This document shows, piece by piece, positions 3,001 to 59,206 of a stretch of 64,000 nt of DNA. The position numbers were made by a program, and so were the translations under genes. The notes beneath the pieces were generated by a model. It was not told the DNA's origin, did not search any database, and saw only the letters and a program-made list of their open reading frames with translations. Position 1 is the first letter of the stretch. Every line of letters starts with the position of its first letter. Origin of the DNA: Brachionichthys hirsutus (lineage: Eukaryota); NCBI RefSeq assembly GCF_040956055.1, contig NC_090911.1, positions 1,524,830 to 1,588,829 on the forward strand, given 5' to 3'.

Positions 3001-6000
3001 TACAAAAGAATTAGGTGTACATGAGTGTGACTGATTAATTTAGGACAAAGCTTAATTGAATTAAAGGAGCGTTGACAAGGAATGAGGTCATTTATTTCAA
3101 GTTTGCGTTCCTAGAAGCCAAACTAACAAAAGATTTTTAGATCATAAATATAAACACACAATACAATTGTTTAAAAAGGTTCTAGTCTCCCATAAAAGTA
3201 AAACATTTAAATTAAATAAATTAAATTCAAAGCCCTATCAGGCTTATCAAAAATCAGAGTAGACCTGTAACAATAATTTAATGTTACTACAGGTAACAAT
3301 CCATCATTTAATTGGCCAGATCTATGAATTATACCGGAGACATTATAGAACATTTTGAAAAATATGACATGAAAGAAAGTGAAGATTAAAAAAAATAATA
3401 TTTTGTAATTTTGTAATAAAATTAATTATTCAAACAGGGAACTAAATAAATAATGTGCTGTAACACAAACAAAACAGGTAAAACAGCTGCATCTATTCAA
3501 AAGTGACTGAGCAGCAACCCAGAATATTTATGTATATTAGGTTCTGTGTAAAGTACTTCTGCGCTAGAAGTACAATAAAAAATAAAATAAAGCTCCAGAG
3601 GAGTAAATCCCTCATTAACTTCTGTCACTTTGTGTTTGACCGGTTTAGAGAAGCGCCACATCTTCGCTAGCGAATCGATGAAAGTTTAAAATACACTCGG
3701 ATATAAACAACTATCATCTAAAACTGAACAACTCGATCAACCGTGACGTCATCCTGTCACCTACCGAATACCTGAAGACTGTTCAGGGACACAGTACTTC
3801 ACATTGGGTCGGAACCGACCAACAAACAGCTGCTCAGGCTGGGTCGACGTCATCCCCGCAGAATTTAAACTTCACCGCAGCTGCACCCGCGGTGCGTTCA
3901 CGAGCTCCCGCAAAACCCCGAAATCACAGCTTCGCTACTCCAGCGGGTTTTCGTTTGTTATTGTTGTACACGCGGCACAATTAATTTTTTTTATGTTCAT
4001 TACGTATATCACATGACATGTTAGATACATTTGATAAATCAGCGTGGCTTTACAATCGTGAAAGAAACTTTTGTAAAAATATATGTTTACATTATTTAAA
4101 ATGTTTATTTTAGAGTTAAACAATAAAGAAATATTGATATACACACACAATCGATTCGGCTTCCAGTCTCCATCAACATATCTCAATCACTAATCAACAC
4201 TCAAAGATATTCTGCCCACCTGTGACGTAAGTTTCATATTTCAAGTTGCAGTATTTACCTTTACATTCGGTAACTAAAATATTTCACCCAAAGACAACAC
4301 GAGTTACAGGTCTAACAAAGCATCTCGATCAACACGCCATACCTGTGTTACACCCCCCCCCCCCCCCCCCCCCCCACAGTGAAATCCTCCGCTGTGGAAT
4401 CAGGTGGATTCATGTACACCAAAAGACCCGTCATCAAAAGCCCCTCTCAGACTGATTTCAAAGAGGACAGGTAGAAATGAACGACAAATATCTCACCTGC
4501 TTTTTCTTTTTTTTGCAGTAGGAGCGGATGCGAGGCTCCTTCTTAGCTTTGAGGTGGCTGTGGACTCACCTGGGAATGGGGCGGGGCAGCTCAAGTCTAC
4601 CTGACACCGTGGGAGGGACAGAAACGCGTTTCCCAGTGTGACACTGACTCAACAGTTTCACGAGCATCAGCAGAAGCTACATAGAAACCGACACAGAAAA
4701 GGTTTGGCCATCTTGCATCTTATTGTGAACTCACAGCCAAGAGCTGAAGTGGAAAAGAATCGAACCCTTGATTTGACCCACATCATCAGTTTTTATTAAA
4801 TTTAGCTGGTGGATTGTATATATGGTATATAAATAATGTACATTTTACCTCTCTAAATGATCACCAGACACAGACCAGCACTAAATACAAACTAAAGTTC
4901 CATGGATCATTCCAAATATTCCAGTTTAAAATATGGAATATATTGGAATTATACTCATGGGAGACTGATATCAATACTGCTGCAGCTGTTGATTAGGTTT
5001 TATGTCATATGTAGGAAGAAATGGGAAACATTTGACATAGAAACACATTTCTGTCATCTCAATAGGGTTCTGACCATTAACGTTTATATAAAAGGTTATA
5101 TAAAATCAAACTAGAACTTAAATTGTGTCAAAATCCTTCAACATCTTCAGGTAGCAGCCTTCCATCTCAATTTGTCACAGACAAATATTTAATCTAACTC
5201 TAACTCTAACTCTGAAAACCACAAGCTATGTTTGTTTATCCAAGTACAACAGGAAATACCAGCTCGAATGATCAGACAGAAGGAAATACATTTCATAAAA
5301 AAGTTTAAACTGACAACTTGGTTCTGTTGTTTTAAATAATAAAGGTTGGATCTACTTTTCTGAAACATTTTGCACATGAAAATAATTATTGACTGAACAA
5401 ACAACAACTGCAACAAGATTGACAAATAAATACGAAGGTGCGTATGAATAAATTATGACTAAAATTATGAATGAGAATAAATGTTCTTTTTTAAAAACGT
5501 CACAATAAATGAACTTTAGTTTGTTTTTTTTGTGGACAAGCTGATGCATTCCTGTAAGTGTGAGATCCTATTGGCCCAGTCAAGAGCGTTTTACACCTGT
5601 AAAACATGTTCTCACACGAAAGAGGAAAATACAATGGACGAACCTGTCAGACTCCCGAACCCTGATTGTACCTTAATTTCTACCTCCATCAATGAGGTTA
5701 GGTTATGTTATGTATGTTTTTGTTTTTAGGTACAATTACATAACGGGGAACTTGAACTAGCTTAGCGGAGGTTCATGCTCCAGTAATTTACCATGACATA
5801 CTTATGACTGCTGTATTCATGAAAAACCAGTTACGTCAGGCATTCAAAAGTTAATGCCGACTGTTACACGTCAAAGTGCTCAATAAGTGGATGTTAACCC
5901 TCCCTGAAGATAAATATTTACCCCTATTGAGTATTAACTAGAGTAAATGTTGCTGACGGAACCATTCCAGGATCCAATAGGATCGAGTAACGACCAGTTC

Positions 6001-6551: not shown

Positions 6552-7506
6552 TCAATCATAATCTCGCCTCTCAATGTCTTCTTTGATGGCTTTTTTAATG
6601 CGGTCAATTTCGTCTTCCTCTGAACTGTCATATTTGTGATCTTTCCCTTTCTCGTCACCGCCCAAGGCAGCCGACTGGTTGGCGCCGCTTTCTGGCGAGG
6701 TGGCCTGCAGCTCCTCTCGGATGGCGTTGAGCTCCACCAGACCATCGTGCAGCTGTGTGGCCACCTCCCGGATTTTGGCTGCAAACTCAGACTTGGCCCC
6801 TTTCTTGAGTTCCTTCGAGTCTTTGGCCACAAAGTAGATGTCCATACCCACGAAAAGCCCAGTAAGAACGCCAGTAGCCATACTGGCAATCTGGACCGCT
6901 CTGGCTGCTGTGCTGCCGGCCACATTGGCGATCTGTACCACGCGCATGATCTCGTTAGCGTTGATGAGGATCGCCTTCCCTGCCATGGCGCCGTCCTCGT
7001 AGAAGCTGCTGCTGAGCACAGGGAAGTCTCGGTTGTAGGCGTGCTTTTTCATCTTGATCAGGTCGAACCTCTTCAGGTTCTCGATACCCTGCTTGATGAA
7101 TTTCAGGCACTTGTTGAGGTCCTCCATCTTCTCCTGATAGTCCTTAACAATCTTCTCTACCTTTTTGCGGTCCATAGAATTGTTGACCTGGTTGGAGATG
7201 CCGGCCCCAGCCGACGTCAGCCCACCCGCCGCGGCAACACCCAATCCCACCGCTGTCACAATAAGGGACGTTCCGAAGGTGACTGGTGCCAGAGCGAGGC
7301 CCGCGATGGTAGCCACGCCCCCAATGGCGCTGGTGGAGCCGCCAGTAATTTGAGCGATCTTTGTGTTTTTGTTGAACTTGTCCAGTCCGTCTGCGATGCC
7401 GTTCAGGTCTATGACATGCTGCCAGAGGCTCTCGGCGCGTTCTGAGAACAGCTTGTTGAAGACGCGGATGCCCTTTTGCACCTTCTCTGCCGTCACAGCG
7501 AATGCT
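6552..7506 (-). CDS. Apolipoprotein L-like, terminal coding exon including the stop at 6552-6554
   Basis: The translation AFAVTAEKVQKGIRVF...ITGGSTSAIGGVATIAGLALAPVTFGTSLIVTAVGLGVAAAGG...MDRKKVEKIVKDYQEKMEDLNK matches the APOL membrane-addressing/pore region (compare human APOL1 LAPFTEGGSLVL). A polypyrimidine tract and cag acceptor sit at about 7507. A tttatt polyA signal lies near 6255 on the minus strand. Confidence 0.8.
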
Positions 7507-7735
7507 CTGAGAGGAAGCAAAAGAATTAGCTCAAGTTTGCACGAGTCCGTCTCATACAAATGTTCCTGTGATATCCAAATTCCTGTCCAGTAACATATAT
7601 GGAATATGTCTTCATTTCTACAATGCAAACTGCTTAGCAAATCTGGACATCTTAACATTGAAGCTACATTTGCTAAATATGGGGGGGGGGGGGGGGGAAA
7701 GACCTATTTGAACCTTCACTTACTTTGCCTCTTCT

Positions 7736-7787
7736 TTTTCAGTCATGTCATCCTCTTGAGGCGTGTCTTCCCATGCTGAGAAAGTAG
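7736..7787 (-). CDS. Apolipoprotein L-like internal exon (..SWEDTPQEDDMTEKEEAK)
   Basis: It has a cag acceptor and a GTAAGT donor. Its phase (2 nt in, 2 nt out) is compatible with both flanking exons. Confidence 0.6.
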
Positions 7788-8465: not shown

Positions 8466-8505
8466 ACTCCACTGAGTTCCACCAATCCATAAGACGTTCC
8501 GCATC
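8466..8505 (-). CDS. Apolipoprotein L-like internal exon (DAERLMDWWNSVE)
   Basis: A tttcag acceptor and a GTAAGT donor flank it. The phase-1 exit matches the next exon downstream. Confidence 0.5.
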
Positions 8506-8623: not shown

Positions 8624-8701
8624 CTCTCCCTCCCCAGTCTGTGTTGGCCCGATACGGAAGTCCTCCAGCCGGTCAAACAGGGACCGGTTCCCACCTTCAT
8701 T
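8624..8701 (-). CDS. Apolipoprotein L-like internal exon (NEGGNRSLFDRLEDFRIGPTQTGEGE)
   Basis: It has a ttcctgcag acceptor and a GTTGGT donor. It is 78 nt and phase 0. Upstream coding exons and the start codon were not resolved. Confidence 0.5.
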
Positions 8702-9344
8702 CTGCAGGAACACAAATCGTACAGCTTAAAAGCAGACATGGATGCAGCTTCTTGCCTTTGTAGTTTACAGTAGTTCATGTGCGAGTCACTCAGGCAACAT
8801 GGCTGCCTTTATTTTCCTGTCGCTCTGAGCTCATTCAAGCGATCCCACGGATGTTCTGCACACGGAAAAGGACCGAGTTCTTTTCTCTTATTGTGGAAGT
8901 GTTGATCCAGCATGTCTGATATTATCATTTGTACTGACTTTCTAATGTTATCTTGTCACTAGCGGAACACGAAACGGTCCCAGTGTGAACGCAGCTTAAG
9001 TGGAAAACCACACATTTCAAATGTAAACTGAAATCATAGAGCCATGTCCTCGTTTTGGCCGTGTGTGCGTGCCGTAGACAGAGAGGAGGAAGTGGCTGTC
9101 GGAGGATTCGGCTTTTTGTTTTCTGAAAAGGGAAGCAGAAAAACAAGTTGGGGCACATTGCGGCCTAAACTAATCGTGTGCGCTCGGGGCATGCCCAAAC
9201 ACTTTGTGGTGGAGTACAGGTGTGTGTGTGTGTGGGGGGGGGGGGCAGTCAAGGATGGGTCAGGTGACTGAAACAAAGCCACAATATGAAAGGCGAATCT
9301 CGCCTTCTGGTGCACAGACACCGACACCAGAACGCACTTTAACT

Positions 9345-9470
9345 TCAGCAAAGTTCAACTGTGAGAGGACCGAGGAAGAGTAAGAGAGTGCCTGATGAGG
9401 GTTGAATCTTCTCTACCTCTGCCGTGTTGCCTTCATCCTCGTCTTGTGCATTTTTCTGGGCAATTTTGGC
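9345..9470 (-). CDS. Unassigned gene, putative terminal exon (AKIAQKNAQDEDEGNTAEVEKIQ... then stop). The phase is uncertain
   Basis: There is an acceptor at 9471-9473. There is no further donor before the in-frame TGA at 9345-9347. Confidence 0.35.
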   Translation of the reverse strand, partial: AKIAQKNAQDEDEGNTAEVEKIQPSSGTLLLFLGPLTVELC

Positions 9471-12400
9471 CTGGAAATCAGAAACACGACACAAAAAAAG
9501 GCAAGAATGAGAATGTGGCTGAAAGACTGAACATCAGATAGATCTAGTTTGCACAAGTCATGGGCGAACGCTACCTTGACCCGAGGCATGAACGGGTTGT
9601 ACCGCTTAGGTTTCTTGACTTTTACCTAAAAATAACAAAAATAATTAGGTTAAAATGAGCTCCTGGTGGTTTTCATTGTAACAATCAAGCAAAACACTGT
9701 TTCGACAATGTGCATGAAGGAAATGAACAGAAAGACCTCCTCTGCTTTGTCTTTGCCGTCCTCCTTCTTTTCCTCCTGGGATGCAGAATCCTCTTTGTCT
9801 CTCGGACCTTCGTCTTCGGACAGAGGCTGACGTGGGTGCCACAACGGAATAAACGATTGAACGCGTTAATGACCTAATTTAAACCTACGACGTACATAAA
9901 AGGTGAAGCACACATCAAATACCTTGGCTGCAGCTCGCTGTAAAAACGCATTATGGCTTTTGGGTTTCTTCACTTTGGTCTGTTACAGAAAGAACCGAAT
10001 GTTAGCAGACGTGAGAAACAGCAACAAGTTATGAGCACCAATAACTGGGAGGCATTTGATCATGTTCTCTAATTTTGATCATCTTATTCAAACATACATT
10101 TATTTATTTTTATTGTGCTTCAGAATATATTTAACTGATGCTCTATGCTTGTGTTTAAATAAATTCATAAAGGGCTATGCAGTGACCTTGAAGTGTAGGA
10201 ATTTCTAGTCTTCTCTCAAGATTCCGTCGCTGATGTACATTTCAATAGACTTTTTAATTATAATTACACATAAAGGAAGCACCATCGACTCAAACAGTGG
10301 CAGAGCTGTGTAAATACACACGCGTTAACTTTTATTTACTCCGTATTAGACACAGTTGTGTCATTATGAGCTCATCCTGTACGACCTTTAACCCCACGAC
10401 CTCACTGACCTGCTGGGGCTCGGTGTGGCTGGAACCACCAGCTTTGGGTATGTCTGATAACAGACATGATAACAAATATAACTAGGAGTAATGTCTCTTA
10501 ATTTGAAAGGGACACAGGAAGTTAGTTAAAACTTCCATTGTTAATGCTGAACAGACAGGTGTGTGTGTGTGTGTGTGTGTGGCACGCTGCTGCGGACACA
10601 TGTGTGTCTTTCATGAGTCTCACTGATCCGGCTCTGGAATGAATGAACTTCTAAGCAGGAAGCAGGAAGAAGAACAACATGTTACATCCACCGATCAGTG
10701 CGTTTGTTTTCCCCTCCTTGAAGCACATTTAGGCCGACACTGGGAAAGGAAACTGATGAAGGCATAAACTCACCGCGCTGCCTCCTGGCCGGTCGGCCTC
10801 GCCTCCCCTTTCAGTCTTGCAGGAATCCTCATTTTTGATGCCTTCGTCATCCGATTGGTTCTACAGCGAATTGGACGCATTAAATTTTAATTACAGGGCG
10901 GTGCTTTCCACATGCCTGACGTGTTGAAGCCAACGGTGAATATGCTGATCATTGAAGACACAGGCGTGTTCCTCTAATTTTAAAATAATCCGAAACCACT
11001 TTCATATCGTCTTTGAGGTCTCCTCCAGATGTTTGCAGACACGCAAGCAGCTGATGATCCTAATGCGTCCGCTGTGGGCCATCGCCTGCCTCACCCCAAC
11101 GTTCAGTGTCAGGGTACGCGCACCGGCGTACATCACAGATAAACTTGCTATGTTTATTTAACATTTCTGGGCCAAAGCATGCGCGGACCTCAGTCCGTAG
11201 TTTGTGTGCATGTCAGTACCTGATGGCAGCTCTTCTGCTTTTGCCAACCACGTTTTGCTTCCCTGTTGAGTTCCTGAAAAGGAACCTTTAACCGCCTAGT
11301 TAATAAGCTGTCAGTGAAGTAGATGGATACGCCTCATCTCTGAGACACAGACAGATATTATTCTCTAAACAATGAACGACTAATTCAGCTCCTCTGACAG
11401 TCTGCCAGGCATTACTGTTGGTTCTGCCGTTTCCTCATAATCATGGGAGAAAACAAAGCATGCCTTACGACCCATCTAACATGATGGCATAGAGACGCTC
11501 TTCTATTTGCATGAGATGCAACACTTTCTTCTTGTTGACGGAAAAATGACATTTAACTAACGCAACTCGTGCACTGACAGATTCCATCTCACACGTTCAA
11601 ATTCTCATTTAGCAGAAAGATTCAGCCAACAAACACATCACAAAGATTACCTGCTTATCTTCAGCCCCTCCTGGTTCCACTCTGCTGCATGTGGACGTCC
11701 CTTTCGTCTCCTGTGGATAGATCACAGCTGTAACAAGGCAGCGCAACAGGCAGCAAAGGAGCGCCAGCACAAACCTCTTCCGTTGGTCGGGAGGGGAGCT
11801 GCGGGCTTTCACTTCGCCCCTTCCTCTCTCGCTGGATCATCTTGCCTTTGACCTGACGAGATACCGGGGGAAGCACAGAGTCAGCCACTGAGGGGGAAGC
11901 AGGAGGCTCTGACGAAGAACAAGCTGGATTTAAAAGGGCAGGCAACAGGAAGGAGGATGCGGCGAAGGCAAGGAAGAGGAGGAGTGTAAGGAGGAAGGGC
12001 GAATTAACAGAGATATTTAACAAAGTTGATCAGCTGTGCGTGTGCGTGTGCGTGTGCGTGTGCGTGTGCGTGTGCGTGTGCGTGTGCGTGTGCGTGTGCG
12101 TGTGCGTGTGTGTGTGTGTGTGCGTGTGTGTGTGTGCGTGTGTGGTCATTGATGACTCATGAGTGATGTGAAAACAGACTGACCACATTTGGCTTCTCCT
12201 CCACTGGCATTTCTGCTTTCTTGAGACTCTCAGGGTCTTTATGGTCTTTCTGAACATAGAATTCAAAATGTCAGCAATGAAACCAGATCAAGCAGAACCA
12301 GACTCATAACTTCAGGAGCAGCGTATTACGGTCTTATTAACAATCTACTTTACGGCCCTGAACTACATCTTTAAGGTTCTTGACTAAAACACCTCTTAGA

Positions 12401-15400
12401 TCTTCGGGCGCTTGTGAACTATGTCTGCTGTGAGGTCATAGCTGGCCTTCAATCTAAAAGTTGCTTCACAGGAATCTGAAGCAAACGCCTGCCTGGGGTG
12501 TGTCAGAGACCAGGGAAACATAAAAACACACACAAAAAGTGTATTTTGAATGAATATGAAACCTTTAAGTTTTCAAAAAAACTCTTCCTGCTTTTCCTGG
12601 AAGCCTGTAATTTATTATATAATCTTGAAAATGCAAACACGATAAGATACGGTACTAAAGACTTTCCTTTTTAACAAAGCTTATAGTCAATCAATACAAT
12701 AATCAATATGCTGTCATAGGCCAGCGCTGGTGGCTTAACCTGCTGTGACACACTGAGCTCCTCCCTCTCTATCTGGTTATTCATGTTATAAATATATATC
12801 AGTAATCCCTGCAAAAACGCTGACCCATCCAAGTCAGCATTAAAGAAAATAAATCTGAGATTATACTGGATATGACTGCTGATCAGTTTCAAAGATTTAT
12901 GAGTGCCTTTTGAAAACTCTTAAACATTCTGGCAGACAACCTCTGGATAGAAATTATAATAATTTCATTACGCTGCCAGAAATGTTGCAGTCAAACAGGA
13001 AGAAGTAAGAACACACCTTTGTCTTGCTGCTCACAGACGGCTCGTCGTCATCCGAGGCCGCCAGCTTCTCATTCTGCAGAGAGAACACGAGTCCTTCTTT
13101 AAAGAGAATCGCACCCCTACGCTTCTCTGACCTACATCCAATCCAAACCGCCCTCACTTTGTTCGCATGTCGAAACGGATTCAGCTTCGTCATTGCCTCG
13201 GCAAATTTACTCTGAATTTGGAATAATACAGAAAGAAAAAAATGATCGACAACAACAACAAAAAACATTAAAACCGAAAGAGATTTGCATTTAAAACAAA
13301 AGTAAGCAAAAGTGTACCAACCTGCTTGTGACCCTCCCCGTTGTTTAACGCCTCCTCAGCGTCTGACGCAGACTTCTGAAGATTCAAACAAGATTTATCA
13401 TCAAATACAATCATTAGTAGATAGAGGTAAAAAAAAATTTTTTTTAGCAGATTATCTACCCATAATCCATAATTAAACTGGGATTTATTTTACACCCGAA
13501 CTCAGAGGACAACGTGTGTTCACCCCCCCCCCCCCCCCCCCCCTTCAGCTCCTGCTTCATGGTGTTAAGGAGGGATAGAAAAGTTTCTGTGAAATGTAGT
13601 AAAACATCATCATTTCTTTACTTTACGTAATTAGCGTATTCGTTCTTGACTCATCACCAAAAGTGTCGCTGGTGAGGTCACAACCAATGAATGGCATCAA
13701 GGTGAGCTGATAACACGCAGCACTGATCGATCATTAGAACACACCCCCTACCTGGCTTTCGACGTAGAATGTGCTCCTTGTTGCGCTGAAACCGTCCTGA
13801 AATAAATCAGCGAGAGAAAGATGCAGATTTTATTGATTTATTTTTGTCTTAAGAGACGTAATCAGGACCTCCTGGTGTTACATTTATGTATCCTGAACGT
13901 ACCTGCTTGGCTTTAAGCTTCTCTGTCGTCATGGCGATATCCTTTGAGCCTCCCGATTGTTCAGCCTTTGCTTTTTCCTGTAAAAACACACCACAACACA
14001 TCACCGATTTCAGAACACGACATTCTGACACGCTGGACGGACAAAGCAACTCCCCTGATACAGAGATCGATTGATCCGAGATGAATTTAAAGGATTCTTT
14101 AGGGCCTTCGGGACAGAAAACTGAAAGCAGCTAAAAGCTGACGCGTGTTTTGTTAATGTTCACAGCAAGTGAAGACGGATGAGCAGCAGAAGACTCGCCT
14201 TTGAAGGCTTCTCTGTGAGAGCGTCGCTGCTTGCAGCAGGTTTGTCTTCCGCAGACAAATCGTCCTACACAAAAAGGACAGAGACAGAATGCAAGACACA
14301 AAGATAAGTAAAGACAATGAAACATGCACTATTTGAGTAAAAGAAAACAAAAATCCATCCGATTAGCCTGCTTGATCCATGGAAATCAGATTCTTAGATT
14401 AGTGAAATGCCAAAAAAAAATACAAATGTTATAATCCCTTTATCTGGATCACCACCGAAATGCGATGGCATCTTTCCAGGATCACGTCGCCTCCTCTCCA
14501 GGTTCTGTGGAAATCTGCTGAGTAGTTTTCTTGGACCCGAGCCCAAGGTGAAGGCAGAGGTCAATATTAAAGGGTCCACGGAGAGCATTTTTATCTGATT
14601 ATCTTTTGACAAAGGAAGTAAAAATCTGCCGTCAACTCGGTAGCTATAATCCCATATTTTTCGTGACACCTTCTTGGATTCTACCAGAGCCCCTTGACAA
14701 CCAGCTCAACAAATGCATTGACAAATGTCACATCAGGACAGAAAAGATCTGAAAAAGGATTTCTATTTGCAGCCCGCCTTACCTGAGAAGGAGATTTCGT
14801 GACTTTCTTTCTGAACACACCGCTAAAGAATCCTCCTTTTTCCTGACACAATAACATGAAACCAGGACTGAAGTTATTGCTGCTTGTTATTTTTCATTAT
14901 GGGATGGCGTTGACAAAATGAACCTTGGCGCCGCCGCCGTTCTCTGTGAGATTGTCACTGCTGCCTGAGAGTTCGCTGTGTGCGGACAAATCGTCCTGGA
15001 GGTGAGACACAATGTCGGAAAAATCATTTCAACCTTGCTCTCGGATTTTATATCGATACAGTTTCAGGGCACGATCACACTGACCGATTAAAATATGACA
15101 TTAGCCTTACCTGAGATTGTGTCCTCAATCCACTGGGCTTTGGGGATTTTTTAAACATGCCACTGAAAATCCCTCCCGTCTCCTAAATCAAAAATTATAT
15201 GAAGATTATAGTCCAAAACAAAGGAACGAAGTTAATCAATCCTGCTCTTACAACCTCACCTTAGCATTGCTGTTCACGGACAGACTGTCAGTGCTGCCTG
15301 AGAGCTCGCCGGGTGCAGACAGGTCATCCTGGAGGTGATAAACATCTGCTGATATCATCGTCATCGTCATCATCATCATCATCATCTCTTCAGGTGTAAA

Positions 15401-17519
15401 GCATTCAGATGATTTCACCTGAGATTGCGTTCTCCCTCCAAAAGTCTTTTTAAACATCCCACTGATTATTCCTCCACTCTCCTGCGTCATGAAACACAAT
15501 AACTGCCATATGAAGCATTCTCCTTGAAATAGTGAAAAACATCAAAACACCGGCTTGTTTTATTGTTTAACTTAGTTAAATAATTGATGAGACTCACTTT
15601 TGCGGCATTTTTCTCAGCCGGCCCGTCGGTGCCCGGCGTGAACTCATTCTCCAGAAGATCCTAAACACATAATAATCATCCGTCAGCCATTGAGCGGGCC
15701 GTGGCGTTCTCCTGACAGGCAGCAGAGGATGGCGTTTCACCTGAGAAGGCCTCCGGACATGCCCCGGTTTAGGAGATCGCTTCAGTATTCCACCAAACAC
15801 ACCGGATCTCTCCTTCAGAGAAAAACAGGCTACGGTTTATTTCCACCGAGCGACAGCACAGACTTCGAACCAGAGCATCAGAGGCTGAACCGACCTTCGA
15901 TGCTTTATTGTCTGCGGCGTTCTCGCTGTTGGCGGACGGTCCAGGATTGTCAGAGCTGCCCTAGAAAACAGGAAAAATGTGGCATTTTTGATCTGCATGC
16001 TTCTATGAAACTATGGAGACACACGTTTTATATTATTTTCTGAGATGAACTGGTAAAAGATTTGCGTAAAGAAGCAGCACAGACACACAGGATGAGAAAA
16101 CGAATGGCCATAGAGAAACACACATTAAAACTAAATTGAGAAAACATGAAAGAGATTTTTTTGGGGTGTTTCTGTGATATTTGCATAACGTTCATCGGAT
16201 CACATTTAAGGCACAGGAACCACCAAATGGTTTTACCTGTGGCTTAAATGATAAATAAGGAAGTGAAACTGGTTGTTGATTTGTTGATAGACTTGACTAA
16301 TATGCTAAATTTCAGTTTAATATCGACAGTAAAGTCAGAAGTCCTCTCCCAACCTGGAGCTGATCCTCTTTGGCTGCTTTGGCCGTCTTCTTAAACATTC
16401 CTTTAAACACACCTCCTTTCTCCTGAAATGAGAAGATAAGACTAAATGATAGAAAAGAAAAAAGATGGGACAAACGTAAATAACTTAGAGAGCCTCACCG
16501 CGGTGCTGCCGTCCGTCAGACTGTCGCTGCTCTTTGAAAAGTCACTAGTGGCTGATAAACTGTTCTGTAGAGTTAAAACAGGCATAAATACATAAATCAT
16601 CAATCGGGTTTGCGTAGGCTAAATTCAAATGAGGAAAAATTCCTTTTTTCCGTTTCTGGTTATTCATTTTAAATGAGTCAGGCGTTTTAAAGATCAATAA
16701 TACCACCTCACCTGTGCGTGGACGGAGGGCTCTGCCGACTTGGAGGACTTTTTGAACATCCCACTGAATAATGACGGCTTTTGCTGAATCAGGAGTGGAA
16801 AACGTTTCACATTAAACTACAATAAACTAATTTATTGTTGAGTCGTGGAGAGGGGGTAGGTTTAAATAAGCTAAGGCTTCATCCTACTCCTTTTCGGACA
16901 TGCTGTTTGTATTATTATTGTTGTTTTGACATTGTTATTGTTAGTTTGACTATTATCATTGTTTTCGGTTTGTTTGTTTTCTATTTGTCTTTTTAAATTG
17001 CATGTTCGAAATAAAGCAATCAATCAATCAATTCACAGCAGAGAGAAAACGATCACTGGTGGATGGCTGGTTATTAACTCTTTCACCGCTGATGTTCTGG
17101 TTCTGGTTCTGCTCTGTAAAGTCAGCCTTTCATCCTGCTCATTGTTAGAAGTGGAGTCTATTCTGCTGGAGTATAAAGCCAGGACAACAGAAACTGTGTG
17201 GCATGACGTCAGCGGGTAAGGGGGGGGGGGGGCAGTAAACAACAGCCCCCACCTTTAGCCAACGTTGCGTTTAAACACAGACTGTAAACACTCACGTCAT
17301 CTGCTCCCTCACATTCCAGGTCCAGTTCCAGGTTTTCATACCGCTCCTGTCAAACAGCAGGAATCATTTCCACCGTCACTTTTTAACTTTTTCTTATTTT
17401 TCCACACATTAAGCGACAAACGAAACAATAAATACTGAAACGGTTTGTCCCGAGCAAAAACTACAAAGACGTGACAGCACGAACGCTAACGAGCCAAGTC
17501 AGCTACATAAACTCACCAT
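9345..17519 (-). CDS. Unassigned multi-exon gene (locus span). About 25 or more short exons encode a low-complexity K/S/E-rich protein with recurring GG(I/V/F)FSGMFKK and LQDDLSA..ELSGS motifs
   Basis: A chain of short minus-strand exons each shows a pyrimidine-tract/AG acceptor and a GT donor with compatible phases. Examples are 17296-17346 (ERYENLELDLECEGADD), 16712-16783, 16499-16564, 16354-16422, and approximate exons near 15595-15660, 15435-15480, 15290-15340, 14940-15000, 14190-14270, 13896-13970, 13745-13795, 13322-13380, 13140-13195, 13028-13084, 12195-12258, 11648-11712, 10785-10855, 9935-9985, 9575-9640 and 9420-9470. The ATG at 17517-17519 is the last codon of a mostly 5'UTR exon 1 (donor GTGAGT). 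A GC/CpG-rich putative promoter lies at 17.55-17.85 kb. The product is not recognised. Confidence 0.6.
16354..16422 (-). CDS. Unassigned gene exon (EKGGVFKGMFKKTAKAAKEDQLQ)
   Basis: It has a ttcatttcag acceptor and a GTTGGG donor. It is 69 nt and phase 0. It repeats the motif seen in the exons near 15435 and 16730. Confidence 0.6.
16499..16564 (-). CDS. Unassigned gene exon (NSLSATSDFSKSSDSLTDGSTA)
   Basis: It has a ctctacag acceptor and a GTGAGG donor. It is 66 nt and phase 0. Confidence 0.6.
16712..16783 (-). CDS. Unassigned gene exon (QKPSLFSGMFKKSSKSAEPSVHAQ)
   Basis: It has a ctgattcag acceptor and a GTGAGG donor. It is exactly 24 codons. Confidence 0.6.
17296..17346 (-). CDS. Unassigned gene exon 2 (ERYENLELDLECEGADD)
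   Basis: It has a tgtttgacag acceptor and a GTGAGT donor. It is 51 nt and phase 0, and follows the exon-1 ATG in frame. Confidence 0.55.
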
Positions 17520-17952
17520 CACCAGCTCGGCGTCAGCGCCCGTTTATTGTTTGGGTGTTGTTTGTTGTTTCGCCTCGGTGAGACGTTCCGGGCTCCCCGT
17601 CACGGTCGCTTCTTTTACCTCCCGGTGGTGAACCTAAAGCTCCTCCCGAAAACAAAGCTCCAGACTTCGGATATTAGCCGCTTGACCTGCGTGGGGTGTC
17701 ATGATACTCCACGGAACTTGTTCATCCAGTTTTCTTTCTTTTACCTGCAGGGCGTCGCCCAGAAGAGGGCGTGTCTGCCTCACTCACCTGGGAGTTTGAC
17801 ATCAGCCCAGTGCTGCTTTCAGGTGCTGCTTAGGAACGTCGGAAACGCTGACTAGTGGCGCGCACATTGAAAAAGTGACGCTATAAACCTTTATTTCACC
17901 GGGTAAGCCAATTGAGAATTAACTCTCTTTTTCCCAATAACGACCTGGACCT

Positions 17953-18105
17953 AAGGTGCATGTTTTGGGTGGTGGAAGGAAGCCAGAGAACCCGGAGAGA
18001 ACCCACGCAGACAGCATGCAAACTCCTCACATAAAGTTGGATTTGAACCTGCGACCTTCTTGCTGTGAGGCAACGGCACTAACCACTGCGCCACCGTGCT
18101 GCAAA
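17953..18105 (-). mobile_element. A copy of the same SINE family in reverse orientation
   Basis: Its reverse complement reads gcagcacggtggcgcagtggttagtgccgttgcctcacagcaag..ggttcaaatcc..tgtgaggagtttgcatg. Confidence 0.65.
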
Positions 18106-19457: not shown

Positions 19458-22400
19458 CTGGACACAGACAGAAAAAGATCGTCAGACCATTTACAGTGAA
19501 TCCTATGCCATTTGTTACCTTTACCAAGAGGCAGGTTAGCCACGTTCACCATGGCAAAGGTTCACATTCAACATGTAGATATGAAGCGGGATTGATTTTC
19601 TCATCTAATAATCAGCCGGAGAGGAAAGGACTGCAAACCCTAAATGTCAAACTGTTGTGTCGAGAATCTGCTGCACCTGTTTTTTGGTATTTCTGTCCCA
19701 GAGCTTCACCGTCCGGTCGTAGGAGCCCGAGATGATGACGTGGTCGGTGAGTCTCAGCACACTGATCCTGTCACTGTGGGCCTGTGGGATCACACATCGT
19801 CATTAAAACACACGCAACCGTCTCTGATGTCCCCTCAGCGTTGAACGATGAATTGATGCTGGAACTGGCAGTTAATCAGGTGTCTTTTGGTAATCATAAC
19901 TTAGTCAGCGATAGTTTGGGCTTCCCATTAAGTCCCGACCAACAGCCAGGATTATTTTGTCTTACAGGTTTTCTGCCGCTCCATGTAGAAGGTTCCGGTG
20001 GCCGGATAAACCACATGTTGCCCTTCACGTCTCCGCACACAATCAAATCTGAAAGAAGGCAAGACACCCTGGGTAGCCACAGGAAACACAAACTGGCAGT
20101 GCAGATGGCATTTCTAGCTGATGTTTATTACCCTCAAAACATGCACCTCTTTGGCCTCCTTCAAAACGGCCCTAAAAATACACCTTTTAGGGGGACAGAA
20201 ATGGAGATAGTCATCACGACTCTCTCCGGATCAAGCCCCCCCCCCCCCCCTTTTTTTTTGTCCACCTACGTTGCACATATTAATTGCCTTAGTAATTTAT
20301 TGTAATTTATGTAATTTATTGTCATTCATTGTCATTTTGCATCAGTGGTGTAATTTATTTTAGATTAATTGTTAGTTTGCATCGGTGGTGTAAAATCATT
20401 TTATTTTTGTTTTTCTAATGTTACGTTGCATCAATTGAGTTATTGAATATTGGTTTTATTTGTATTTGTATTGTTAAATTTGTATTGTTAATTGTGGATG
20501 ATTTATGTATGAAGGACTTTCAACGGAAACAAGACCGCAAGGGCTTTTTTGAAATGCTCCTCTTAGACAGGATGTTTGACTTTATCTGTACTGTAATACA
20601 TGCTACTGTGTGACTGTACTTGTACTCCAACATTCTATCTAATAAATATATTCATTCATTCATTCATTACCTCTGTTCAGAATTACAGCCGATATCATGC
20701 TTCCCTTTTTCTCCTCCTCGTCAGTCTCCAGTGCGACGGAGCTGAAAGCTGAAGTGAGGGGACTTTTTGGGCCCATGGTGAACTGAGGAACGAGACATCA
20801 GTAATGAGTGTGGAATAATACACCTGAATGACTTCCCTTCTGTCGGAATACAAGCACTGCAGACAAAGGAGCAATTATTGTAACCAATAAATGTCTACTA
20901 AACAAGGAAGAAATTATTGTTTTTACAAAAAGACAAGCAGTACATTATGAAATTAGCAAATATATTTAATTTCACTAAAAGAAATTGATGGTGTGTTTTG
21001 TTCTTGATATTTAGAAACTAACCAAGAAGCTGATTTGAATCTCTCCCTCTGCATCGCCAACCAGCCACATGCTTTTCTCATCATTAGGGATCAACCCCAA
21101 AATTCGGACTCTCAGCTCCAAACTGCAAAAACAGAGAAGAAGAAAGTCCGCTCACTGTGCAAGACAAAAGCTGGGAGTATTATATCTAGCTGAGCTAAAC
21201 TGTACAGCAAGAGACACTCGATAAACAAAGACTTAAATGTTAATTGCTGTGAACATTCAGAATCATTCTGGTCCACCGTACAGGCCTCCTGTAGAACAAG
21301 ATTCAAATTTATGTATAATGTGATCTGGTAATTTTAAGAAAATACCTGCTGACAGGATGGATTTTAAATGCTAGACAGTTCCAAAAACTGGTTATTGAAC
21401 GAATTTATATTTTAAATAAGTAATATTTATAGTAATCTGCCCTGAGCGAAGGGTTAAAATAACGCTATTCAGCCCCTGAGCATAAAACACAGGATGCAGC
21501 TTTACCTGGTCACACTCCTGCTCCAGAGGTCTTTCTCCTGGCAGTTGATGTCATATAATTTTCCACTGTGCGTCAAACCCATCAGGACTGAGCAGTAGTG
21601 GAGGCCGACCACTGGCTGCTTCACTTTGTAGCTGTTGACCTTCAGCAGGCTGGACGAGCAGGGACACGGGACAGGACAGCTTAGTGCCACCAATTAGACG
21701 GCGTATTTCATTCCTGGAACCTAAATATCAGGTCATGTTTGCAACTGAGAACTGGTTCTCAAAAGCAAATACAGCGATACACCTTGAGATGAGAGTATAA
21801 TTAGTTCCTGGACCGAGCCGGTAACTCCAGTTACTCGTACCTCAAATAAATTATTCCCATAGAAAATAACTGGAAAAGAAACACAGGCGTTTATTTTATT
21901 TGACATTTTGACTATTTGTTACTCTTGACTGAACAAAGGTTGAAAGTTTTTTGTGTTTTTTTACCTTGCAGTGCCGTCTTGTTGATTCCACACCAGCTTC
22001 CACACATTGATGTAAAGTTTCATGCAGCTGACAGCAAACTGGTTATCGGGCATGGAGCAGATAGCGGCGATGCTGCCGTCTGAAGCCTGACACACACACA
22101 CACACACACAATGTAATCACACAAGCATGAGGTGTTCAGAAAACAGACCTTTTTTCGGTGTGTCCTCACCTGCTTGTAGCCAATCACGGCGTTGTGCTTC
22201 CATAACTCGAGCAAACCAGATTCATAACCAGCGAGAAGCAGATCGTGTACGGGAGAGAAACAGAGGGCTGTGACTGAGCCTCTCTGAGTGGGGGAGCGCT
22301 CTGGAAAAGCAGCGCATGAACAAATGTTGGTCAGGATTTTTAGTCTGACCCCTGGAGATGAGCAGTTTCTCCTGCAAGTCAAATCAACTCTAAACTGTCC

Positions 22401-25400
22401 TTTTACTGTCCAGCCACCGGATGAGGTCTGCTTTTCTCACCAATGGTCACTGAGCATGAATAGCAGCGCACTTCAGAGACATTTCAGCTTTAATCATGCC
22501 TCTGAGGCTAAATGTTTAGGCTTCCCTGCCTTAATTACAGCACCGCTCAATGATTTCATCTAGACAAACAAAATGTATTTTTCTCTTTAGAAAACGCTGG
22601 ACATGTTTCATTATAAAGTGCTGAACATTTACAAGAACTGAAAACAAAAATAATAAGCAGCCCATAAACAAGGAAAACAAATTAGATATTTGCTAAAAAG
22701 ATCCTCAGATTAAAAGAAAACCCTGAAGACAATACTTTGAGTCATCGTGTCTTACCTCTTGTCAAAGTCCAGCATCGTAAGGAGCCGTCTTCGGAAACTG
22801 AAAGGAATTCTGGGAGCCCTTCTTTGCGAGCGACTCCACGTATCGCACCGCTGTGACCCTGGAAGGTGTTGAAGTGCTCCACCTTGAAGTAAAAATAAAT
22901 AAGAGAGGAAGATGGATAAATAAAGTGTGTGTGCATTCTTCTACAACAGCCCTGAGGAGGATACTCTGTGAACACAACAGGAAAATGATTCTAGTAGGAT
23001 GTAAATGCCTGACGAGCCTTTTCTTGTTTTACGTTGACTGACAGACCTGTAAGGGTTTCAGGAACTGCACTGTGCCATCATCGGAAGCAGTGACAACAGT
23101 CAATTCTCCTGGGTTCTCTCCTTCGATGTCATCTTAAAAACAATGGAAGGAATTAAAAAAGAATTGTTACAAAAATCTTACAAATCTGCCTCACTGGTTA
23201 TATGAAAAAGAGATGGAGAGTCAAAGACAACATGTGGAAGTAAAGGCATGTTTTGCACACGGCAAACCTTTCATCGGTAGGACTGAGCAGTAGTGGATGC
23301 GTCGCTTGTGTGCAGCAATGTGGCAAATTTCAACGCTCGCTTCCCAGGTCCAGACATGCAGCGACCCCTCTGCACAGCTGGCGACCACATACGGCCCCTG
23401 CATAGAGAAAATACCCCGATGAAACATTTTAACAGCCACAAACGCTAAAATAAACATTAATTTAGGGGTTCAGGAGAGACGAAAGCCACACATACTGCAT
23501 GTTTGCCGATAGAGTGATGTGTGACTGCTCACCTGAGAGCAGACAGATGTCAGAGGACTCCTCCAGGAGATTTCTTTGAGGTATCCTCCATCCTCCAGGT
23601 CCCAGACACAGAGCTTCCCATCATTCGAAGAGCTAACCTGGAAGGAAGATGAAAGGCTGGTGAAGAGCGCGTGACTCAGGATAGGACCACGACTCCACCG
23701 CCAACAGCGCCGAACACAAACGTTATGCAAATGTACCGCACAGGCTGGAGTCCAAACGCAGTCGGTGACCCAGTCTCTGTGAGCGTGAGGGAAGGACCTG
23801 GATTGAACGGCGGGAGAGACGCTCACATTCCACACCATCAGGGCCTGGAAGCAACACAGAGCCAGTCCGGCGTTCGTTGGGTTAGATAGCGACTCAACAT
23901 CTGGACCTTTACCATCACAGACACCAATTGTTTCATTTGCATGAACACAATGTACAGGCCACTGATGAAATCATTCTTAATTGGTGTGGATATTTACTTG
24001 CTCTTGTTATTGCATTGACCATTATCCCATCTAAGATTGATTATAGATAAATAAGACAGCCATGCTGTACTGCGTTTACATCAAAACCAAAATCCCGACT
24101 TTGTCACAACGCCAAAGTACAAACACGTCATACGTGATCTTTTCCACCAGAGAGCAGCTGGGCACCGTCAGGGCTGAAAGCCAGACAGGTGACTCCTCCA
24201 GTGTGGCCCCGGAGAAACACCTGAGGATCAATACAGGGCTCCCGGGCCAAATCACTCAGCAGCCACAGCGCGATGGTGCAGTCCTCTAATTCAGCATAAT
24301 GAAACAGTGATTAGCATCAAGTTCGCCTTTGTGAGAGACTGATGAAGCCTGTTACAAACCCAGTGAGGGTCTCGTTGTTACTTGACGCCACTTACCTGAA
24401 GCTGTGGCCAGGTAAGTGGCGTTTTGCGCCAACGCCAGGATGACGCCCGCTTGTGCACCAAACAGTCCCCACATGTTCAGGCCTCCCAGTATTCCCGCTT
24501 CTCCTTCATTCCTCTTCCAGACCCTGACGCGTTTGTCACTTCCTCCAGACAACAGCAGGTTTGGTTCGGTGTGGTCGTCGCCCAGGAAGACCCACAGCAG
24601 GCACAGGACGGACACGGTGAGGTGATCCGAGGCCCAGATCTTCTTTGCTACGGTTGAAATAAGTAGAACTGATCATGTTTATCGCATCAGTTGTGTGCAA
24701 AAACTTAATATAGAAGGGAGGAGACATGTGAAAGAAATTAGCATATTACTGGTACATGAATAGAATAATGTACAAAATAGTTGTTAGCCAATATTAGTAT
24801 GTATGGTTTGTATCAGCTTTATCTATAAGACATTGCCTAGTCCTGTTTGTAACTGCAATATAGAGGTTTTAATTGATGGACTGATGGCCGACTTTTAATT
24901 TATTGGCATCACTGCAGTCTTAGAAGTTAATTTGATCAACTCAAATGCAAATGAACTGATATTTATCAGAGAAGGGTTGGTCTGGTGAGTGCATAAACAC
25001 ACCGGAATCAATACTGAAGAGCTTGAGACCATCGCCATGGTAACCCACAGCAGCATAGTCTCCATCTACAGCCACGCACAAAGCAGCAGGCTCAGAGCTT
25101 GCAGACTTCCATTTCTTCAGAGGAGGCTCCAGCTCGCACTGGAAGACCAGAATAGAGAAAATGAGAAATGAACATTTTCATTTATGTGTCAACTTTTATT
25201 TAACAAACAGAAAATAAAGGCAAATCACGCAGTAAAGATGAATATCCAATAATGCAACGTGTTTAAAATAGCTAGGGAGCTTACGGCATCGCTTTTCAAA
25301 GCAGCAACTGAACGTCCCAGTCCAACTGACCAGAGATGGAGCTGTTTCACAAAAACACAAGTGATCACAGAAGAAAAAGGCAAAGGTTAATGCTGAAACA

Positions 25401-52929: not shown

Positions 52930-53400
52930 TCTATAAAATGACAAACCGAAACGTTTGTCCTCTGTCTGCTGAAGCGGTTGTCCTCTGTCTGCTGAAGCGG
53001 TTGTCCTCTGTCTGCTGAAACGGTTGTCCTCTCTGCTGAAGCGGTTGTCCTCTCTGCTGAAGCGGTTGTCCTCTGTCTGCTGAAGCGGTTGTCCTCTGTC
53101 TGCTGAAACGGTTGTCCTCTCTGCTGAAACGGTTGTCCTCTCTGCTGAAGCGGTTGTCCTCTGTCTGCTGAAACGGTTGTCCTCTGTCTGCTGAAGCGGT
53201 TGTCCTCTGTCTGCTGAAACGGTTGTCCTCTGTCTGCTGAAACGGTTGTCCTCTCTGCTGAAACGGTTGTCCTCTCTGCTGAAGCGGTTGTCCTCTGTCT
53301 GCTGAAACGGTTGTCCTCTGTCTGCTGAAGCGGTTGTCCTCTGTCTGCTGAAGCGGTTGTCCTCTCTGCTGAAGCGGTTGTCCTCTGTCTGCTGACACGA
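52930..53400. repeat. Minisatellite with 23-29-bp units ((ctgctgaa(a/g)cggttgtcctct(gt)) of about 18 units)
   Basis: It is a direct tandem array immediately upstream of the putative TMBIM 5' exon. Confidence 0.9.
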
Positions 53401-55594: not shown

Positions 55595-55745
<151 letters not shown>

Positions 55746-58858: not shown

Positions 58859-59105
58859 TGTAATCTGGCCTGTGGGTCAGTGCTCCTGTAATCTGGCCCG
58901 TGGGTCAGTGCTCCTGTAATCTGGCCCGTGGGTCAGTGCTCCTGTAATCTGGCCCGTGGGTCAGTGCTCCTGTAATCTGGCCTGTGGGTCAGTGATCCTA
59001 TAATCTGGCCTGTGGGTCAGTGCTCCTGTAATCTGGCCTGTGGGTCAGTGATCCTATAATCTGGCCTGTGGGTCAGTGCTCCTGTAATCTGGCCTGTGGG
59101 TCGGT
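58858..59105. repeat. 29-bp minisatellite of 8 units (tcctgtaatctggcc(c/t)gtgggtcagtgc), contiguous with the 15-bp array
   Basis: It is a direct tandem array. Confidence 0.9.
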
Positions 59106-59206
59106 ACTCCACAGAGATTCTACATTCACCATTTCAAGCTCACAGAACTCAGTTCATTTTCTGCCGTGCACTTTTTTTCTGAATGGCTGTTGCGGGACAA
59201 ACAGAC

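Follow-up and report, generated by a model that had tools for sequence, protein, structure and literature searches.

The mammalian proteins APOL1-6 and APOLD1 are about 280-430 amino acids (aa) long and are not known to have any repeat extension comparable to the one discussed here, and human APOL1, a trypanolytic factor, is secreted on HDL via a signal peptide. Their Pfam ApoL domain, with its Gly/Ala-rich hydrophobic helical hairpin, is also found in the protein that concerns us here, the apol1 product of the handfish Brachionichthys hirsutus, whose gene lies on the minus strand of a 64,000-nucleotide stretch of contig NC_090911.1 (the window; all coordinates are positions within it unless another locus is named). 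The APOL family has been argued to derive from an APOLD1-like ancestor, and APOL1 proper to be confined to humans and a few primates (PMC8557400); on this family history, the fish name 'apol1' should be taken to denote membership of the ApoL family and not strict orthology. Zebrafish apol1 (NP_001025309, ENSDARG00000007425), which shares its gene name in UniProt and Ensembl with the orthologues considered below and has an ApoL domain and no secretory signal, has been described as a short protein of a 2.6-kb locus, with no repeat-rich extension mentioned (PMC4492502, PMC4854397), and has been noted to lack a secretory domain (PMC4492502). This short zebrafish protein has already been used to model APOL1 nephropathy.

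The handfish locus contains a series of mini-exons that are almost certainly coding exons 1-28 of one 32-exon apol1 orthologue encoding 956 aa. We read the minus strand of the window from 9000 to 18000, extracting each candidate exon by script, and found a dense chain of short exons from 17519 to 9417, with polypyrimidine/AG acceptors and GT donors. An earlier note on this DNA had described the chain, its start codon and its module sequences, correctly as judged by exon extraction and orthologue alignment; it had also taken the chain for an unassigned gene lying between an APOL-like gene and TEP1, when in fact it forms the 5' two-thirds of that APOL-like gene. An ATG-only exon at 17519 is followed by 28 consecutive phase-0 mini-exons, which are short as first proposed, although they range over 45-90 nt (nucleotides) and not 45-75 nt; the lengths of exons 2-29 are all multiples of 3, for which the chance is ~1e-13 (computed for 27 exons). 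The GT donor claimed for every exon is present throughout the chain except for a single GC donor, gcgagt, at 14199 in exon 14. Nor does the gene stop near 9345, where its end had been placed: the last mini-exon of the interval first described (9470-9417) continues into 8701-8624, 8505-8466, 7775-7724 and 7506-6552, with the stop at 6552. The assembled coding sequence, from 17519 to 6552, comprises 32 exons and 2871 nt for the 956 aa, and its exons are as follows.

Exon 1, 17517..17519, minus strand: ATG alone (M), donor gtgagt; orthologues begin M-ERYD
Exon 2, 17296..17346, minus strand: ERYENLELDLECEGADD, phase 0; 86% identity to P0007 residues 2-15 (tblastn)
Exon 3, 16712..16783, minus strand: QKPSLFSGMFKKSSKSAEPSVHAQ, hydrophobic-basic module 1; DNA repeat D4
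Exon 4, 16499..16564, minus strand: NSLSATSDFSKSSDSLTDGSTA, Ser/acidic module 1
Exon 5, 16354..16422, minus strand: EKGGVFKGMFKKTAKAAKEDQLQ, module 2; DNA repeat D4
Exon 6, 15895..15960, minus strand: GSSDNPGPSANSENAADNKASK
Exon 7, 15741..15812, minus strand: ERSGVFGGILKRSPKPGHVRRPSQ, module 3, with an RRPS site (R..S match); 89% identity to P0001
Exon 8, 15598..15660, minus strand: DLLENEFTPGTDGPAEKNAAK, SQ-DLL conserved
Exon 9, 15419..15481, minus strand: ESGGIISGMFKKTFGGRTQSQ, module 4; DNA repeats D4 and D5
Exon 10, 15260..15328, minus strand: DDLSAPGELSGSTDSLSVNSNAK; DNA repeat D3
Exon 11, 15111..15182, minus strand: ETGGIFSGMFKKSPKPSGLRTQSQ, module 5, nearest to the consensus; DNA repeats D4 and D5
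Exon 12, 14924..14995, minus strand: DDLSAHSELSGSSDNLTENGGGAK; DNA repeat D3
Exon 13, 14783..14842, minus strand: EKGGFFSGVFRKKVTKSPSQ, module 6; DNA repeat D4
Exon 14, 14199..14264, minus strand: DDLSAEDKPAASSDALTEKPSK, GC donor gcgagt; DNA repeat D3; matches P0001 residues 249-270
Exon 15, 13903..13977, minus strand: EKAKAEQSGGSKDIAMTTEKLKAKQ
Exon 16, 13752..13796, minus strand: DGFSATRSTFYVESQ
Exon 17, 13322..13375, minus strand: KSASDAEEALNNGEGHKQ
Exon 18, 13158..13211, minus strand: SKFAEAMTKLNPFRHANK, first NPF; internal Met is the start of P0039; AMTKLNPFR conserved
Exon 19, 13017..13073, minus strand: NEKLAASDDDEPSVSSKTK
Exon 20, 12184..12249, minus strand: KDHKDPESLKKAEMPVEEKPNV
Exon 21, 11775..11852, minus strand: VKGKMIQRERKGRSESPQLPSRPTEE, conserved PxxPxR proline motif
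Exon 22, 11651..11710, minus strand: ETKGTSTCSRVEPGGAEDKQ
Exon 23, 11220..11273, minus strand: ELNREAKRGWQKQKSCHQ, probable cassette exon with good splice sites
Exon 24, 10774..10860, minus strand: NQSDDEGIKNEDSCKTERGGEADRPGGSA
Exon 25, 9923..9979, minus strand: TKVKKPKSHNAFLQRAAAK, NPF changed to NAF in the handfish
Exon 26, 9737..9826, minus strand: PLSEDEGPRDKEDSASQEEKKEDGKDKAEE
Exon 27, 9575..9625, minus strand: VKVKKPKRYNPFMPRVK, NPF invariant in 47/47 orthologues
Exon 28, 9417..9470, minus strand: AKIAQKNAQDEDEGNTAE, last exon of the interval first described
Exon 29, 8624..8701, minus strand: NEGGNRSLFDRLEDFRIGPTQTGEGE, first predicted helix
Exon 30, 8466..8505, minus strand: DAERLMDWWNSVE plus 1 nt; first exon with a length not divisible by 3
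Exon 31, 7724..7775, minus strand: (S)WEDTPQEDDMTEKEEA(K), read as SWEDTPQEDDMTEKEEAK
Exon 32, 6552..7506, minus strand: AFAVTAEK...RRDYD and the stop; ApoL domain; 99.7% identity to P0039

Six pairs of exons follow exon 2, each consisting of a hydrophobic-basic exon and then a Ser/Asp-rich exon. The six first-of-pair peptides (QKPSLFSGMFKK.., EKGGVFKGMFKK.., ERSGVFGGILKR.., ESGGIISGMFKK.., ETGGIFSGMFKK.. and EKGGFFSGVFRK..) all fit GGxF(S/K/G)G(M/I/V)(F/L)(K/R)(K/R), and half of the six Ser/Asp-rich exons are clear copies of DDLSAxxELSGSxDxL; module exons are also seen as direct DNA repeats with 62-84% identity (families D3 and D4). Downstream of the modules, linker exons rich in Lys, Glu and Ser encode AMTKLNPFR, SPQLPSRPTEE, TKVKKPKSHNAF and VKVKKPKRYNPFMPRVK, the KVKKPK..N(P/A)F type being present among them. 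As the exons are all phase-symmetric, duplication, loss or skipping of any of them leaves the frame intact, in keeping with module numbers that vary from species to species and with the large number of predicted isoforms (up to X16). The cassette exon at 11273-11220 is skipped by the handfish P0039 and frogfish P0001 models; it resembles EELSRAERRALQKHHQ of P0007 and ELNRSVKGGRQKHKK of P0089, and a homologous exon is included in Chaetodon. Two further segments of plausible appearance, 10453-10410 (44 nt, frame-breaking) and 9358-9338 (LNFAEVK), were judged not to be exons, as no orthologue aligns with either, and the same is true of terminal pieces ending at 9263 or 9037, the junction from 9417 to 8701 matching P0039 exactly. 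The introns of the gene hold simple repeats, namely (GCACAC)n/(CA)n at 12035-12150, a poly-G of ~25 nt at 13525-13550, poly-C at 17220-17235 and a (GAT)n-like run beside exon 9 at 15355-15395.

The identity of the gene follows from database searches, which returned a known and named protein, apolipoprotein L1, for a sequence that the earlier note had been unable to place in any family. A 589-aa conceptual protein gave 153 protein matches (best E = 7e-198), and among the 120 matches listed nearly all are teleost proteins of ~700-1030 aa, most with a C-terminal PF05461 domain; the databases contain collinear orthologues of 900-1030 aa from ~100 teleost species. Their names are either 'apolipoprotein L1 isoform X..' or 'Apolipoprotein L, 1' (RefSeq/UniProt), or else evidently spurious automatic ones. 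The handfish itself has a RefSeq 'apolipoprotein L1' of 586 aa (P0039), a nearly perfect match to the window, in which mini-exons 18-28, eleven in number, are joined to the ApoL domain, and our model without the cassette exon is identical to it from residue 353 to the stop. Starting at the internal Met of exon 18, P0039 leaves out the 17 coding exons before that one (352 residues) as well as the cassette exon; those 17 exons are backed by orthologues and by a transcript contig. The full model is collinear from end to end with P0001, P0002 and P0028 at 64-77% identity, its residues 1-955 corresponding to residues 1-991 and 1-1005 of the long orthologues, with a single high-scoring segment pair each to P0002 and P0028. 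Antennarius striatus 'apolipoprotein L1 isoform X2' (P0001, 920 aa) and Morone saxatilis 'isoform X6' (P0002, 1006 aa), both collinear throughout at 67-77% identity, have module order, NPF boxes, the WWNxVE.WED linker and the ApoL domain in common with the handfish, which differs from these proteins in having six hydrophobic-basic modules, a second NPF changed to NAF, and one SDDEG/KVKKPK box pair where Morone has duplicates. The transcript contig (L002) is a 4159-nt RNA-derived Logan contig from SRR27393481 with an uninterrupted open reading frame (ORF) at 206-3184 that contains modules, NPF boxes and ApoL domain, and is therefore a spliced transcript; it encodes P0028 (992 aa), collinear with handfish residues 1-955 at 64% identity. 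The ApoL domain, PF05461, matches model residues 645-899 over profile positions 43-297 of 298 (E = 1.7e-36; 126.7 bits against a gathering cutoff of 25.9).

The apol1 locus is thus an ordinary, normally structured and already catalogued gene, and the mini-exon series is its front two-thirds, a part without any prior study. A literature search returned no paper with the motif peptides or with the gene name apold1a, and a search on the combination of APOLD1, zebrafish and disordered N-terminus returned nothing relevant (PMC6854765 is not concerned with APOL). As regards annotation, RefSeq apol1 of the handfish is short at its N-terminus by 17 coding exons or 352 residues, and by one cassette exon, and the automatic names of many orthologues (starmaker-like, piccolo, titin homolog, dao-5-like and KAT6B among them) are misleading, their source being the low-complexity extension.

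The mini-exons very probably encode a disordered motif-array extension of handfish apol1. AlphaFold2, run on the Morone orthologue with an alignment of 47 sequences, gave a model of low overall confidence (pLDDT 45), in which residues 1-635 have no secondary structure (pLDDT < 50) and helices appear only from residue 638, beginning at the SLFDRLEDF and LMDWWNTVE segments. Residues 1 to ~640 are accordingly predicted to be an intrinsically disordered extension before the ApoL domain, in agreement with the disorder proposed in the earlier note. A Pfam scan of the N-terminal 589 aa returned only a sub-threshold Halo_GVPC repeat match (E = 0.14), which we judge spurious; a sequence search of the Protein Data Bank (PDB) with the N-terminal 639 aa gave no match at E <= 1; and a Foldseek comparison of the AlphaFold2 model with PDB structures had no match below E = 0.3 and listed only helical hairpins of a generic kind, an outcome that at the low confidence of the model speaks neither way. 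The N-terminal LELDLE was also considered as a clathrin box and discarded on inspection, the acidic position 2 being a misfit to L-Phi-x-Phi-[DE]. In the ApoL hairpin (residues 669-782; ~7420-7080) we note weak PDB sequence matches, at E = 0.01, to the hydrophobic head region of bacterial alpha-pore-forming toxins of the ClyA family (Vibrio MakA 7p3r, VCA0883 6dfp, Bacillus NheL1-like 6ezv), which are borderline and without Foldseek confirmation.

Across the 47 orthologues, the ApoL domain is almost invariant and the extension keeps separate conserved islands, namely KEKGG.FxGMFKK, RRPSQDLL, SQDDLS..ELSGS.D.LSE, AMTKLNPFR, P.VPPRPTEEE, SDDEGLKEE and KVKKPKRHNPFMPRVK, a further conserved block found with AMTKLNPFR and P.VPPRPTEEE being KVKKPKRHNPFMPR. 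Upstream of the repeats stands a conserved protein start, M-ERYDxLDLDLECxGG. The module, of which 227 copies were compiled, has the consensus T-K-E-K-G-G-[MVIL]-F-[SGK]-G-[MIV]-F-K-K-S-P-K-P-x-G-A-R-T-Q-S-Q-D-D-L-S-A-x-S-E-L-S-x-S-x-D-S-L-S. Its hydrophobic-basic half, TKEKGG-[MVIL]-F-x-G-[MIV]-F-K-K-SPKP..R.QSQ (module peptide KETGGIFSGMFKKSPKP), occupies one exon and its Ser/acidic half, DDLSAxSELSxSxDSLSxN, the next. Among these copies the Gly reaches a frequency of 0.98, the two Phe 0.81 and 0.83 and K/R 1.00, and the motif Ser position is variable (S 0.48, G 0.33, K 0.15). Handfish units come out close to neutral, since a basic half has a net charge of +2 to +5 per 20-24 residues and an acidic half one of -1 to -4. 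The modules are followed by NPF basic boxes (AMTKLNPFR, KVKKPKRxNPFMPR), the PxxPxR proline motif and acidic SDDEGLKEE spacers. Orthologues have 3-5 NPF each, one of which is invariant in 47/47; the handfish has NPF at residues 357 and 557 and NAF at 508, that is, two NPF against 0.05 expected from composition. PQLPSR fits PxxPxR, the candidate SH3-ligand peptide being ETPPVPPRPTEEE, and there are four R..S sites before acidic halves or in the proline box. The extension thus constitutes a conserved motif array, without prior study, before a nearly invariant teleost ApoL domain.

The extension is restricted in taxonomic range, as the earlier note had suspected in calling the protein lineage-specific. 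A HMMER profile built from orthologue N-termini only (A3), searched against 1.84 billion cluster representatives, matched 86 clusters at E <= 0.001; 20 of these were looked up and 19 had names, all of them teleost except for one spotted-gar protein (P0188), with nothing outside ray-finned fishes among the clusters looked up. A 48-column profile of single repeat units, run against a collection of 5.8 billion proteins, found only eight short unnamed fragments and was uninformative. The A3 matches form three groups, these being apol1, a paralogue named apold1a (for example Sardina P0133 of 1703 aa, Channa P0165, named 'APOLD1/VERGE', and the Mastacembelus P0155 cluster), and a third group (teleost P0169, P0187 and P0204 and spotted-gar P0188) in which the hydrophobic motif is fused straight to NPF (NPGMFKGVMQKVNPFKS). 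The spotted-gar protein has GGISGMLWNPF-type repeats (GGISGMLWNPFRS), and apol1 of many species contains GGVMGKILKNPF; this points to a common origin of FSGMFKK module and NPF box. Among catfishes, Siluriform apol1 models are often 520-600 aa long, and the Neoarius form has 984 aa with SGGVLSGFFRRSPKP modules. A query with the catfish N-terminus found Siluriformes, Characiformes and Gymnotiformes and no Cypriniformes, and neither of the N-terminal queries retrieved a cypriniform protein.

Gene order was compared with one other species, the tarpon Megalops atlantica, where an orthologue is present at the TEP1-flanking position. In the tarpon locus (L001), the C-terminal propeller of TEP1, apol1 (772 aa) and a 1128-aa ApoL paralogue follow one another on a single strand, and each half-module has a phase-0 exon to itself, 69-75 nt long and bounded by ag/gt (QEKGGMLSGMFRRSPKP... 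and QDNLSTHSELSASNDSLTDNNNTK); as tarpon is a basal teleost, this shared exon architecture is no younger than the teleost ancestor. Conservation of module cores and NPF boxes extends from Elopomorpha to Percomorpha, with related motifs in gar. It is possible, on a fairly doubtful footing, that modules and NPF boxes make up an ancient trafficking and membrane-tethering extension, at least as old as the common ancestor of gar and teleosts and present in apol1, apold1a and the NPGMFKGVMQKVNPFKS group. If this is true, the ancestral ray-finned-fish ApoL would have been a large cytosolic protein combining a motif scaffold with a membrane-inserting domain, the motif would be a new, undescribed class of linear motif, and short-form fish models of human APOL1 kidney disease would omit up to two-thirds of the native protein.

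The paralogue apold1a lies immediately downstream of apol1 both in tarpon and in the window, where a second ApoL-family gene, apold1a-like, starts at 2212 on the minus strand (36-2212), in the same position as the 1128-aa tarpon paralogue. Teleost apold1a has the same two-part module (KEKGGIFSGIFKK... / ...ELSASNDSLSDN) up to ~11 times before its ApoL domain. It differs from apol1 in that its N-terminus is distinct (MEACMMKPEVKKKPKPPKPPPKP), NPF boxes are absent, the ApoL domain has diverged further and the C-terminal tail is long and charged. In tarpon, the module exons of apol1 and paralogue (11488-12185 against 28204-29406 of L001) encode peptides that are 88-92% identical (QEKGGMLSGMFRRSPKPAE.., QDKLSTHSELSASNDSLTDNN), far above the rest of both proteins, pointing to gene conversion between the tandem copies or to a recent exchange of exons. 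The parts of the handfish paralogue within the window are as follows.

Start of the apold1a-like paralogue, 2212, minus strand: MEAGMMRPEVKKRPRP...
Exon of the apold1a-like paralogue, near 2050, minus strand: PKPPPKPP
Exon of the apold1a-like paralogue, 265-188, minus strand: ELNATRYSQRHRVRAEDTQ
Exon of the apold1a-like paralogue, 83-36, minus strand: TGIFQRSKREKSPTFT; runs past the window edge

As to function, we propose tentatively, and rate as no better than one possibility among several, that the spliced motif array tethers the ApoL domain to membranes and to the trafficking machinery. First of all, the protein N-terminus (MERYENLELDLECEG / MERYENLELDLECEGADD) is acidic and by inspection has no hydrophobic stretch, so that, in contrast to human APOL1, no signal peptide is found in the handfish protein, and it is expected to be intracellular; the ApoL hairpin, ITGGSTSAIGGVATIAGLALAPVTFGTSLIVTAVGLGVAAAGG, is present and nearly invariant, with a putative role in membrane insertion or pore formation. 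With no signal peptide, a membrane-inserting hairpin and the motifs, the most economical reading is a cytosolic tethered protein. Second, Phe/Met clusters beside Lys typically partition into the interface of acidic membranes, and the repeated hydrophobic-basic motifs would bind acidic lipid surfaces weakly and multivalently; RRxS/RxxS are sites for basophilic kinases and S-x-x-[DE] for kinases of the CK2 type, and the adjacent RxxS and S-x-x-[DE] Ser clusters could act as a phosphorylation switch for lipid binding. Third, NPF is the canonical EH-domain ligand and PxxPxR a class II SH3 ligand; the NPF motifs, which are conserved tripeptides within the predicted disordered region, may recruit EH-domain proteins, and PxxPxR may recruit SH3-domain proteins. 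The NPF-bearing EH-domain ligands epsin, synaptojanin-170 and Numb are endocytic accessory proteins, and apol1 likewise has several NPF, proline motifs and DLL on a long disordered chain joined to a membrane module, whereas it has an ApoL domain in place of an ENTH, ANTH or PTB domain, and its role as an EH ligand is putative. Finally, a flexible and alternatively spliced array of short linear motifs would place the ApoL domain at membranes of the endocytic or secretory pathway, on their cytosolic side. If the extension does direct the ApoL domain there, it bears on the ancestral intracellular role of ApoL and on the reading of fish models.

Several points weigh against this picture, some of them concerning the motifs and others the extension as a whole. 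The assignments of motifs to partners are inferred from general knowledge of short linear motifs; basic, not acidic, residues follow the NPF motifs, which is a misfit to the preference of EHD1-4; and in the handfish one NPF has decayed to NAF. A stable amphipathic helix is disfavoured by the near-invariant Gly at the centre of the hydrophobic-basic motif, whose helical hydrophobic moment is only 0.31-0.40. Exons 1-17 are without RNA support from the handfish itself, and P0039 begins at the Met of exon 18, so that a shorter isoform may be the main product. The Siluriform apol1 models of ~520-600 aa are without most of the modules, which implies that modules are dispensable in some lineages.

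These last points lead to the alternative that survives best, a somewhat improbable one in our estimate, in which the extension is mostly facultative, the dominant product being a short ApoL protein made from an internal start or promoter and the repeat exons being rare tissue-specific cassettes with little function of their own. The exon 18 start of the handfish RefSeq model, several catfish models of ~520-600 aa in which modules are few or absent, and the large number of isoforms predicted in each species all speak for it, phase-0 exons making skipping cost-free, and the zebrafish work used the protein of the 2.6-kb locus (PMC4492502). It is harder to reconcile with the conservation of module cores and NPF boxes from Elopomorpha to Percomorpha and of related motifs in gar, with the retention of the same modules by the paralogue apold1a, with a full-length RNA-assembled transcript that has all module types, and with the conserved start M-ERYDxLDLDLECxGG upstream of the repeats.

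We consider it unlikely that the extension acts as a MARCKS-like electrostatic switch, in which the FSGMFKK segments would bind calmodulin and PIP2 and be released on phosphorylation by protein kinase C (PKC). The likeness to the MARCKS effector, which had been pointed out in the earlier note, lies in a F-S-x-x-F-K-K pattern that resembles GFSFKK, in the Ser residues and RxxS sites beside the motif and, more generally, in a short Phe/Ser/Lys motif of a disordered protein with a possible membrane interface, as in MARCKS and MARCKSL1; it fails on charge density, myristoylation and homology. The MARCKS effector domain has ~+13 per 25 residues with interspersed Phe, several-fold more than the apol1 extension, where the basic half, at a net +2 to +5 per 20-24 residues, is neutralized by the acidic half behind it (-1 to -4), which leaves the unit close to neutral. 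Moreover, residue 2 is Glu and not Gly, leaving no myristoylation site, no MARCKS match appeared in the Pfam scan of the N-terminal 589 aa, and the motif Ser is not conserved (S 0.48, G 0.33, K 0.15).

Improbable to a similar degree is a cohesive low-complexity domain, in which GG-Phi-F-x-G-Phi-F would act as FG-type stickers between charged or Ser-rich spacers, giving ApoL condensates or self-association on membranes with no specific partners. Aromatic stickers do recur every ~45 residues in a fully disordered chain, and some copies read LFGG or VFGG; on the other hand, there are just ~3-7 copies per protein, well below known FG domains, and the conservation of the basic tail KK-SPKP, like the strictness of the NPF boxes, points to specific recognition.

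That the mini-exons form a separate, unassigned gene for a free-standing disordered basic/Ser-rich scaffold ending near 9345 is very improbable indeed: a stop-free read-through from 9358 to a stop near 9263, another ORF piece ending at 9037 and a few models that have the N-terminal part without ApoL (P0036 of 481 aa, P0053 of 555 aa, P0061 and P0063) would favour it, whereas the handfish RefSeq protein links exons 18-28 to the ApoL exon in a form that our model reproduces exactly, ~100 orthologues and an intronless transcript contig are collinear through the junction, the proposed terminal pieces are without orthologue support, and P0053 is a truncated prediction that ends ...WEDTPQEEDMTEKEEANC exactly at the exon before the ApoL exon.

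Upstream of apol1 and on the same strand lie the exons of TEP1 (~19000-45000, minus), with domains at 22-35 kb; the assignment of this flank in the earlier note is confirmed by a DUF4062 match in the ORF at 34962-35354 (E = 2.8e-12) and by a match to the second beta-propeller of TEP1 in the ORF at 23470-23838, with WD40-like pieces at 22020-22382. In the TEP1 region, a 27-bp tandem repeat at 33712-34650 (35 copies, 92% matches) yields a spurious plus-strand ORF of 310 aa consisting of YNPYFITRV repeats. Other repeats in the window are a 23-bp unit present 20 times at 52948-53399, with two spurious ORFs of 163 aa, a 28-bp unit present 9 times at 58859-59110, and (AC)73 at 55599-55744. A GC-rich island at 46000-48100 on the plus strand (GC 0.575) holds a 182-aa ORF at 46679-47227 (plus), which starts MGTRASRLQEDP.. 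and has no Pfam match, and the ORF after it contains CPFCSKPFPGGRIEDHLLSCL, a zinc-finger-like segment; the island probably represents the first exons of another gene.

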